In this document: positions 37,665-39,150 of the stretch, one piece after another
Layout: every line of letters starts with the position of its first letter
Numbering within the stretch: the first letter of the stretch is position 1
NCBI RefSeq assembly: GCF_057098645.1
Contig: NZ_CM169472.1
Length of the DNA stretch: 64,000 nt
Strand: one strand, 5' to 3'
The notes under the pieces: model-generated
The model's input: only the letters and a program-made list of their open reading frames with translations
Told to the model about the DNA's origin: nothing
The model's database searches: none
Program-made: the position numbers and the translations under genes

Positions 37665-38879
37665 ATGGCAGTAAAGATTTCAGGTGTACTGAAAGACGGC
37701 ACAGGAAAACCGGTAGAGAACTGCACCATTCAACTGAAAGCCAGACGGACCAGCAGCACGGTGGTGGTGAACACGGTGGCCTCTGAAAATCCGGATGAAG
37801 CCGGTCGTTACAGCATGGACGTTGAGTACGGTCAGTACAGCGTCATTCTGTTGGTGGAGGGCTTCCCGCCGTCACATGCCGGGACCATCACCGTGTATGA
37901 AGATTCTCAACCCGGTACGCTGAATGATTTTCTCGGTGCCATGTCGGAGGATGACGTCCGGCCGGAGGCACTGCGCCGTTTTGAACTGATGGTGGAAGAG
38001 GTGGCGCGTCACGCTGAGGAGGCGAAGAAGAATGCCGGAGAGGCGGAGACGTCAGCGAGGAATGCCGGCATATCAGCCAGTCAGGCAGAAGAGAGCGCTG
38101 CAAATGCTGACACTTCAGCAGGGGAGGCATCGGAGTCAGCCCGGCAGGCGGCAGAAAGTGCAGCCTCAGCAAAGCAGTCAGAGGAGGCGTCCTCGTCCTC
38201 GGCTTCTGCGGCCGCTCAAAAAGCCAGTGAGTCATCACAAAGTGCAGCAGAAGCTGAATTGTCAAGAAAGACGGCAGAAAGTGCAGCCGGTAATGCAGCC
38301 AGGGATGCAACGACCGCAACAGAAAAAGCCCGGGAGTCAGCAGAAAGCGCACAGTCAGCGGAACAAAGCAGGATAGCGGCGGAAGAAGCCGTAAACAGAA
38401 TCCCCACCGTGGTGGGACCTCCCGGGCCAAAGGGGGAACAGGGGCCCGCGGGTCCGCAGGGGCCGAAAGGTGACAGGGGAGAGCGGGGAGAGACCGGTCT
38501 GACGGGAAATGCAGGTCCACAGGGACCAAAGGGAGATACCGGTGCGGCAGGCCCGGCAGGCCCACAGGGACCGAAAGGAGAAACAGGTGCGGCTGGCCCG
38601 GTGGGGGCAACCGGACCTCAGGGACCGAAGGGCGACCCGGGGGAGACACAAATCCGTTTTCGTCTGGGGCCGGGAAACATTATTGAGACAAACAGCAATG
38701 GCTGGTTCCCGGATACAGATGGCGCACTCATCACCGGACTGACCTTTCTTGACCCCAAAGATGCCACACGGGTTCAGGTTTTTTTTCAGCATTTGCAGGT
38801 CAGGTTTGGTGACGGGCCGTGGCAGGATGTTAAGGGGCTGGATGAAGTGGGCAGTGATACAGGCAGAACAGGAGAATGA
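37665..38879 (+). CDS. stf: Side tail fibre protein (Stf N-terminal domain, collagen-like Gly-X-Y repeats, divergent C-terminus), 404 aa
   Basis: [90 protein letters not shown] matches the lambda Stf N-terminus; [28 protein letters not shown]… repeats at about 38400-38640. Confidence 0.85.
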
Positions 38880-38880
38880 C

Positions 38881-39150
38881 ATGAACATATTAAAAAAAAT
38901 TATGCAGCGTCTGTGCGGGTACGGAAAGCATGATGACCGTGAAGACGGGGAGTTACTTACAGCACAGCTGCGACTGGGACCGGCAGACATTCTGGAGTCA
39001 GATGAGAATGGCATTATCCCGGAGCAGGACAGGGTAATCACGCAGGTGGTGATACTGGATGCGGATAAAAAGCAGATACAGTGTGTGGTAAGACCGCTGC
39101 AAATCCTGCGTGCTGACGGGACGTGGGAAAATATTGGCGGGATGAAGTAA
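38881..39150 (+). CDS. Small protein (89 aa) paralogous to the Stf C-terminal module
   Basis: MNILKKIMQRLCGYGKHDD…LRLGPADILESDENGIIPEQDRVITQVVILDADKKQIQCVVRPLQILRADGTWENIGG aligns with Stf …[60 protein letters not shown]; starts 2 nt after the stf stop. Confidence 0.6.
   Translation: MNILKKIMQRLCGYGKHDDREDGELLTAQLRLGPADILESDENGIIPEQDRVITQVVILDADKKQIQCVVRPLQILRADGTWENIGGMK

Follow-up and report, generated by a model that had tools for sequence, protein, structure and literature searches.

The closest described counterparts of the gene pair considered here come from phages Sp5 (VT2-Sakai) and 933W. For Sp5, Mondal et al. 2016 (PMC5155283) identified ORF68 as a fibre C-terminus domain of 89 aa and showed it to be a non-essential late gene; the fibre gene, ORF67, is essential, whereas an ORF68 deletion mutant still gives plaques and lysogens on K-12. 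The same study found no frameshift signal for ORF68 and proposed that it serves as a “reservoir for fibre variation”, and GenBank record KU977419 calls the gene “atfT, alternate tail fiber tip”. Work on the fibre itself by Ghosh et al. 2012 (PMC3368898) has demonstrated that EPclA is a trimeric dumbbell and that its PfC knob trimerises alone and renucleates the collagen helix; the small ORF is not mentioned in that report. A literature search on the locus tags and on “atfT” found no functional study beyond Mondal et al. 2016. Finally, an LC-MS/MS study of CsCl-purified Stx podoviruses (PMC12502783; PRIDE PXD061229) makes no mention of the 89-aa protein, whose tryptic peptides include, for example, LGPADILESDENGIIPEQDR, VITQVVILDADK and ADGTWENIGGMK.

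The window analysed here, a stretch of 64,000 nucleotides, carries a small ORF that is, by sequence, the orthologue of Sp5 ORF68 and 933W L0122. Its product is 91% identical to those of L0122 and the VT2-Sakai gene over 100% of its length, and PHROG 576 covers residues 1-89 of 89 (E 2.9e-59). RefSeq names the small ORF “phage tail fiber C-terminal domain-containing protein” and the Stf homologue “prophage tail fiber N-terminal domain-containing protein”, and annotates the pair in hundreds of E. coli genomes; the small protein is also present in 296 phage records, almost all of Stx-converting phages, at 90-99% identity. The duplicated knob gene and the cassette idea, both of which figured in the initial annotation of this DNA, have been in print since 2016 and are not new, and on these two points the window adds nothing. 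The increment here is comparative evidence, which speaks against a DNA reservoir and in favour of a conserved partner protein.

As in Sp5 and 933W, the ORF is 89 aa long and lies directly 3' of a collagen-like fibre gene that ends in PfC, and the junction is the same. Phage AU5Stx1 likewise has the small gene immediately behind its PfC-ended fibre gene. In those two phages, ORF68 or L0122 follows a short-tail fibre gene (EPclB type) and is itself followed by essential tail genes, with L0122 located inside the late tail gene cluster, or operon, of 933W. Here, by contrast, the small ORF comes after the gene of a long-tailed lambdoid Stf (EPclA type), and the prophage is defective.

The stf gene and the ORF behind it

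The stf gene (37665-38879, + strand) encodes a collagen-like side tail fibre of EPclA type, 404 aa long from its ATG, with a TGA stop codon at 38877-38879. The protein is ordered as PfN, an Ala/Ser-rich coiled coil, collagen repeats, the PfC knob and an 11-residue tail, and has Pfam matches to PF08400 (lambda-type fibre N-terminus; residues 1-133), PF01391 (collagen) and PF06820 (residues 330-393), an architecture that agrees with that of Ghosh et al. 2012 (PMC3368898). The collagen Gly-X-Y repeats occupy residues 251-327 (38415-38645, + strand), as read from the translation and the PF01391 match, and a repeat search separates two families, D1 and D2, within them. The length of this region differs between prophages, Stf being 404 aa here and 437 aa in relatives. 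The distal trimerisation knob, PfC, follows at residues 330-393 (38652-38843, + strand; PF06820, E 2.5e-34), and alignment places the C-terminal tail in the 11 residues past the PfC model (38844-38876, + strand). Across 78 loci this tail is near-invariant; it has no counterpart in the aligned 89-aa protein, and the Salmonella PfC fibre ends in an analogous but different one.

A single base, C38880, separates the stf TGA from the ATG of the small ORF at 38881. The PfC-only gene runs from 38881 to 39150 on the + strand (PF06820, E 5e-36; PHROG 576 match) and is divided into an N-terminal extension of residues 1-27 (38881-38961, + strand) and a PfC of residues 28-89 (38962-39147, + strand; PF06820). 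A Shine-Dalgarno sequence, AGGAG (38870-38874, + strand), is found 6 nt 5' of the ATG, within the last stf codons, and no promoter-like site was found 5' of the small ORF. The junction is identical in all 19 of the loci matched by a junction search pattern. As had been noted from the sequence at the outset, the ORF is followed by a strong intrinsic terminator that closes the unit (39165-39195, + strand), consisting of a stem-loop at 39165-39189 and then a T tract, with a fold of -21.2 kcal/mol and a z-score of -4.3 relative to shuffles. Conserved sequence ends at this terminator, with identity across about 80 loci standing at 96% in the small ORF and at about 30% once past +330 nt from the ORF start.

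The ORFs between 35000 and 41000 comprise capsid, FI, a J fragment, lom, stf, the small ORF and IS2. The prophage that hosts the pair is defective, having lost almost all of its tail genes, and the small ORF is the last conserved late gene before cargo. In related O145 prophages, an 81-nt remnant of the 3' end of tfa persists downstream of the cargo genes, in line with the early suggestion that the pair stands in place of the lambda stf C-terminus and tfa. The region of an annotated O145 relative also contains effectors and an integrase-like fragment. A minus-strand fragment adjoining the tfa remnant in these relatives was considered as a possible invertase and rejected, being integrase-like.

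Homology, age and conservation of the two knobs

The proposal that the C-terminal module of Stf is duplicated in the ORF that follows it was built on a shared motif, and this motif, RLGP...NG..P..D..IT...LD...LQ...DG.W, corresponds to the conserved core of the PF06820 family. In a BLASTP comparison of the last 79 Stf residues with the 89-aa ORF, 22 of 62 residues are identical (35%), with 61% positives (E 4e-14), and PF06820 (Phage_fiber_C) spans its full 64-position model in both proteins, scoring 117.9 bits in Stf and 123.3 bits in the small ORF relative to a gathering score of 25 bits. The alignment upholds the homology, and the ~64 C-terminal residues of Stf that precede its short tail are paralogous to residues 28-89 of the small ORF. 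The PfC family is very narrow: of 1.84 billion representative proteins searched with a profile, only 90 matched, nearly all of them fragments of Stf-knob or small-ORF type. Searches with a single sequence and with a profile found no relatives of PfC among solved structures, only chance matches to an optineurin coiled coil.

The Stf PfC and the small ORF occur in exactly 296 phage records each, with near-identical organism breakdowns. The last 100 residues of L0121, the short-tail fibre of 933W, are virtually identical to the C-terminus of the Stf described here, so that the module formed by the collagen end, the PfC and the small ORF is common to podovirus and siphovirus genomes. The only clearly divergent stand-alone member of the family is a 79-aa protein (cluster P0128) of Salmonella enterica, mostly subsp. 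salamae. At a representative locus (L086), its gene lies directly 3' of a gene for a 212-aa fibre-like protein that has neither PfN nor collagen and that carries a PfC at its end. The Salmonella small gene possesses its own AGGAGG 7 nt before the ATG and overlaps the fibre gene by 14 nt, a junction different from the one seen here; downstream lie a terminator and, after it, effector genes. Between E. coli and Salmonella, identity is 65% for the small proteins and 40% for the PfC of the fibres, relative to 31-39% for small protein versus fibre, such that each paralogue is nearer its counterpart in the other genus than its own neighbour. Since the paralogue classes are distinct across genera, the duplication predates the E. 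coli/Salmonella split, and the closer match of small protein to small protein than to fibre indicates that both copies have been retained, neither exchanged nor homogenised. To judge from these comparisons, the retention of both knobs through replacement of all else in the fibre would be expected of cooperating proteins, and not of a spare part.

Comparison with the tail-fibre loci of other prophages (80 IMG/VR loci and this window) underscores the constancy of the arrangement. In 69 of 70 loci, 1 nt separates stf from the small ORF, and the small ORF is 89 aa long in 85 of 86, with one clear pseudogene (L060) in which a frameshift joins the two frames and a stop interrupts the small ORF at codon 8. 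Nei-Gojobori counts over unique alleles gave a pN/pS of 0.05 (pS 0.13) for the small-ORF PfC, 0.33 for the first 27 codons of the small ORF and 0.22 for the Stf PfC (48 unique alleles), and pS was comparable in all three regions (0.10-0.14). Purifying selection on the protein encoded by the small ORF is strong; the ORF is maintained as a protein and shows no decay, and it varies less than the Stf knob. It is a genuine late gene and an old paralogue of the fibre PfC knob.

The N-terminal stretch of the small protein follows the pattern M-x-I-(L/F)-K-K-(I/L)-x3-L-x-G-(C)-x-K and is both amphipathic and conserved, with hydrophobic residues at positions 3, 4, 7, 8 and 11. Eight of its first 16 residues (M1, I3, K5, K6, I7, L11, G13 and K16) are identical to those of the Salmonella orthologue, and the variable acidic linker that comes after differs from that of the orthologue in sequence and length. 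An AF2 trimer model was made from three copies of the small protein, joined by Gly-Ser linkers, using an alignment with both paralogue types; one of the five models was confident (pTM 0.53, with 43% of the chain being linker or disordered). In the best model, the PfC is predicted to be all-beta, with six beta strands (pLDDT 75-84) in the same order as predicted for the Stf PfC, and residues 1-27 are of low confidence with a short helix at 3-11. The all-beta prediction matches the CD data of Ghosh et al. (PMC3368898). When three Stf PfC and three small proteins were modelled as a single linked chain, no confident complex was obtained (pLDDT 44.6, pTM 0.35), and the result carries no information on docking.

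Two other identities for the protein were considered and rejected. A lipoprotein or secreted protein was suggested by a lipobox-like “LCGC”, but no hydrophobic signal region is visible by eye, and the second Cys is Y, H or R in many alleles, including that of this window. A type III effector was raised by the effector-cargo neighbours and by the occurrence of the gene only in T3SS-bearing hosts; in 933W, however, the gene lies within the tail operon, and its product shares homology with a domain of the fibre.

Possible roles of the small protein

The initial annotation saw in this ORF a cassette for swapping the distal tip of the fibre, a chaperone for that tip, or a remnant of a tip-switching system. 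The homology and the position at the lambda stf 3' end and tfa have held, whereas an active cassette and a decayed remnant have not. As a recombination reservoir, the ORF would be a spare stretch of coding sequence, available for fusion to stf through deletion or recombination and giving a different distal knob; besides the proposal of Mondal et al. (PMC5155283) and the annotation of KU977419, one natural in-frame chimera (P0062, locus L004) argues for it. In this chimera, collagen repeats are joined to the small-ORF PfC between GERGP and ADILESDENG, by an in-frame deletion at a microhomology of about 7-8 nt (GGGACCG). The chimera was seen in two samples, on a contig that begins inside the gene, and represents 1 of 173 protein clusters (4 sequences versus thousands intact). 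Also in favour, the locus is prone to rearrangement: at L088, a perfect 280-bp tandem duplication has generated a third, chimeric PfC ORF. An exchange between paralogues, considered for P0132, was rejected in favour of a simple, perfect tandem duplication of 280 bp. The locus can rearrange, but frequent rearrangement is not implied by these rare cases. Moreover, both PfC copies are on the + strand, and between 36900 and 39400 no inverted repeats were found that bracket the PfC modules (the best are 12-19 nt, imperfect and not bracketing), nor any DNA-level direct repeat between the modules (best 13 nt). Around 38600-39200, no substantial inverted repeats were found, and no invertase gene was found among the ORFs from 35000 to 41000 or in the annotated O145 relative. 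The two modules are ~50% identical as DNA, with exact runs of at most 8 nt and differences at all bases, and thus present no substrate for homologous or site-specific exchange; an invertible segment and a homologous-recombination cassette were rejected on these grounds. The small PfC is also nearly invariant and would offer no diversity, and a spare part would need no Shine-Dalgarno sequence, start codon or N-terminal peptide, all of which are conserved, Salmonella included. With the paralogue classes kept apart since the two genera split, a reservoir seems quite unlikely. Very improbable is a decaying remnant of an older stf 3' end, or an extension of Stf that is read only after ribosomal or transcriptional slippage. 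It is true that the small-ORF frame (+1 relative to stf) is open back to 38749, overlapping stf, that 933W annotates this longer form, that a T8 run (38779-38786) lies within the overlap, inside the Stf PfC, and that the L060 frameshift joins the two frames. However, L060 is a pseudogene, common alleles interrupt the T run (G/V and F/L/M variants), and a slip there would cut the Stf knob short while adding about 33 unrelated residues. The stop context, GAA-UGA-C, allows no re-pairing for a +1 slip, and Mondal et al. (PMC5155283) saw no signal either; frameshift fusion was rejected on the strength of the unconserved run, the destructive shift and the non-slippery stop. Decay is contradicted by the constant length of the ORF and its low pN/pS.

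A dedicated folding chaperone in place of lambda Tfa, which would act as a template on which the Stf knob forms its trimer and would then dissociate, would account for the tfa position directly 3' of stf, for the putative translational coupling and for the constant co-occurrence with PfC-ended fibres, and a like-for-like domain could template folding. Yet the PfC of EPclA trimerises and refolds unaided, both in isolation and in the full-length protein expressed alone (PMC3368898), the fibre gene of Sp5 is essential where ORF68 is not (PMC5155283), and the small ORF has no tail-fibre-assembly family match in Pfam or NCBIfam. The infectivity of Sp5 after deletion of the orthologue and the self-trimerisation of the Stf knob weaken the chaperone proposal, which in this form is improbable, and leave room for a non-essential helper. 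A non-virion role is likewise unlikely, whether as a soluble decoy, released at lysis to occupy the fibre receptor on debris or neighbouring cells, or as a prophage-expressed function of benefit to the host, such as exclusion. In its favour, the protein is homologous to the knob presumed to bind the receptor but has no shaft, is non-essential in plaque and lysogeny assays, and persists as intact copies in many defective prophages, this one included. The small ORFs beside stf in Sakai Sp3 and Sp15 are, by gene numbering only, presumably ECs0845 and ECs2940. Microarray signals of these two genes rose about 5-fold in non-induced Sakai with spinach root exudate (PMC4940412), although probes on this array cross-hybridise between the copies and some background induction of prophages is possible. 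The lack of any signal peptide or lipobox visible by eye would place the cell surface out of reach from a living lysogen, the gene has no promoter-like site upstream and lies inside the late tail operon in 933W, and, at only 35% identity to the Stf knob, it need not share a receptor with it.

We favour the reading that the small protein is a non-essential, protein-level accessory of PfC-tipped fibres, either as an additional or capping knob, borne by the fibre or the tail, or as an aid to assembly, and would put its probability at roughly 45%. The ORF's own Shine-Dalgarno sequence and start codon, the strong selection and the ancient, co-inherited pair argue for a protein accessory and not for DNA kept for tip swapping. 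As such an accessory, the small ORF would be translated by coupling to stf and thereby made together with the fibre; its product is predicted to fold as an all-beta knob that may trimerise alone like the Stf PfC. Attachment of this knob to a partner would fall to the conserved amphipathic helix at the N-terminus and to the flexible linker.

Several observations touch on the accessory reading from either side. The position of the gene in the tail cluster of 933W and Sp5 fits a late, virion-related role. Conversely, neither plaques nor lysogeny on K-12 are reported to change when ORF68 is deleted (PMC5155283), EPclA made as a recombinant protein folds and forms trimers in the absence of the small protein (PMC3368898), AF2 gave neither a confident complex nor more than the one confident trimer model, and the Stx podovirus proteome study (PMC12502783) does not mention the protein. 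An outermost receptor-binding tip might also be expected to vary more than the Stf knob, and the small knob varies less.

It is tempting to go further and see in the 89-aa protein a second, minimal fibre, the helix of which docks three copies on a PfC-tipped fibre or tail and so presents a second, highly conserved knob; this is possible but rather doubtful. If true, extra receptor specificity or a capped fibre state may have been hidden in K-12 laboratory assays, and the pair would represent an unrecognised type of two-part fibre tip, common to podoviruses and siphoviruses of E. coli and Salmonella. PfC fibres are those of the phages through which Shiga toxin and type III effectors spread in E. 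coli, and fibre-tip content bears on which strains can be converted; the small gene is present throughout these phages and is strongly conserved.

Comparison with known fibre-tip systems

With the tail fibre assembly proteins (lambda Tfa, Mu U/U', P2 G and T4 gp38), the small protein shares the position of its gene directly 3' of the fibre gene and possibly a role at the fibre tip. Some tail fibre assembly proteins remain attached to the tip or serve as an adhesin. The small ORF is homologous to the fibre's own end, whereas Tfa, U/U', G and gp38 are not, and it gave no match to the tail-fibre-assembly families, its sole Pfam match at E ≤ 1 being PF06820 and NCBIfam returning nothing. Its orthologue is dispensable for infectious phage (PMC5155283).

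The invertible systems of Mu (G/Gin), P1 (C/Cin) and e14 (Pin) also place two versions of a fibre C-terminus side by side. In those systems, the alternatives are in opposite orientation between inverted crossover sites and adjoin a serine invertase, whereas the two knobs described here are in direct orientation, with neither inverted repeats nor an invertase. A second copy of a 3' end just downstream is likewise seen in the diversity-generating retroelement of Bordetella phage BPP-1 (mtd VR/TR), where the two copies are near-identical as DNA except at adenine positions and a reverse transcriptase is adjacent. Here, by contrast, DNA identity is ~50%, the differences fall at all bases, and no reverse transcriptase gene was found among the ORFs of the region or the annotations of the O145 relative.

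Finally, with the PfC of the EPclA and EPclB fibres themselves (PF06820), the small protein shares its domain family and a predicted all-beta strand pattern. It differs from them in being 35% identical, free-standing and slower-evolving, in having no 11-residue tail, and in carrying an N-terminal amphipathic helix and linker that replace the collagen shaft.

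Boundary of the effector cargo region

Among about 80 prophages (window 39150-39260 together with loci L005-L084, positions +270 to +330 relative to the start of the small ORF), cross-prophage conservation ends at the terminator (39165-39195) that follows the small ORF, an 89-aa gene (38881-39150, + strand) encoding only the distal knob domain, PfC (PF06820). Mean identity drops from 96% within the small ORF to 66% over the terminator and approximately 30% past it. The small ORF and terminator therefore constitute the fixed left edge of a variable effector cargo region. In the window, this edge is followed after ~65 nt by a 1331-bp copy of IS2 (39259-40589; orfA at 39305-39715), which stands in place of ~3.7 kb found in the O145 strain RM9872, including nleH, cif, an integrase-like fragment, and an 81-nt remnant of the tfa 3' end. 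Homology with RM9872 picks up again at position 40590.

The prophage is defective. Its major capsid gene (35028-36056) and FI-like gene (36060-36491) lead directly into a 149-aa C-terminal fragment of the J tip protein (36484-36933) and then lom (37001-37600), and every tail gene from Z/U/V through most of J is absent (35028-37600). At the bio locus, O145 strains carry the same Z/U/V-to-J deletion.

Length and frame variation at the fibre locus

The collagen repeats of Stf, the EPclA-type side tail fibre, are polymorphic in length, giving a protein of 404 aa here versus 437 aa in close relatives (window 38442-38506 compared with 6481-6515 of locus L085), and EPclA copies are known to vary in length by multiples of three residues (Ghosh et al., PMC3368898). 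Within the PfC coding region of stf, a T8 homopolymer (GTT TTT TTT; 38779-38786) marks a spot at which a number of IMG/VR loci and database proteins break frame, the result, perhaps, of sequencing error or of true slippage mutation. In common alleles, the T8 run is interrupted. At the junction of the two genes, 44 open codons precede the small ORF's ATG in its own frame, overlapping stf (38749-38880), and a longer, 129-aa form of the small ORF is annotated in phages 933W and AU5Stx1. This upstream extension is probably a mere by-product of the stf coding sequence.

Rearranged and divergent PfC loci

Rare rearrangements involve both PfC copies. In L088 (2537-3095), a perfect 280-bp tandem duplication, found in two samples, starts midway through the Stf PfC, reaches codon 40 of the small ORF and yields a third ORF (P0132, 92 aa), in which the N-terminal half of the small ORF is fused in frame to the C-terminal half of the Stf PfC. 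In L004 (1-291), an in-frame deletion has produced a chimera, P0062, that joins the Stf collagen repeats to the small-ORF PfC at GERGP|ADILESDENG, via a short microhomology of ~7-8 nt (GGGACCG); the contig starts within the gene, leaving the N-terminal part of P0062 unseen. Two further fusion proteins, P0065 and P0074, break at the same residue.

In Salmonella enterica (mostly subsp. salamae; L086, 110-974), a 212-aa protein lacking both collagen and the fibre N-terminal domain PfN (PF08400) has a carbohydrate-binding-like middle region and a terminal PfC, and its gene is followed by a 79-aa PfC ORF, a terminator, and NleG-like and SopA-like effector genes; complete E. coli genomes gave no match. 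Finally, a 565-aa protein (P0151; L087, 3505-5202) on a metagenome contig (Logan SRR17035117) possesses four tandem units similar to PfC's C-terminal half (...VVVLDADAKTATGQMGILQVRRADGTWMEIPALKG), with collagen repeats positioned C-terminal to them, suggesting that the PfC-like repeat family is wider and older and extends to other phages.
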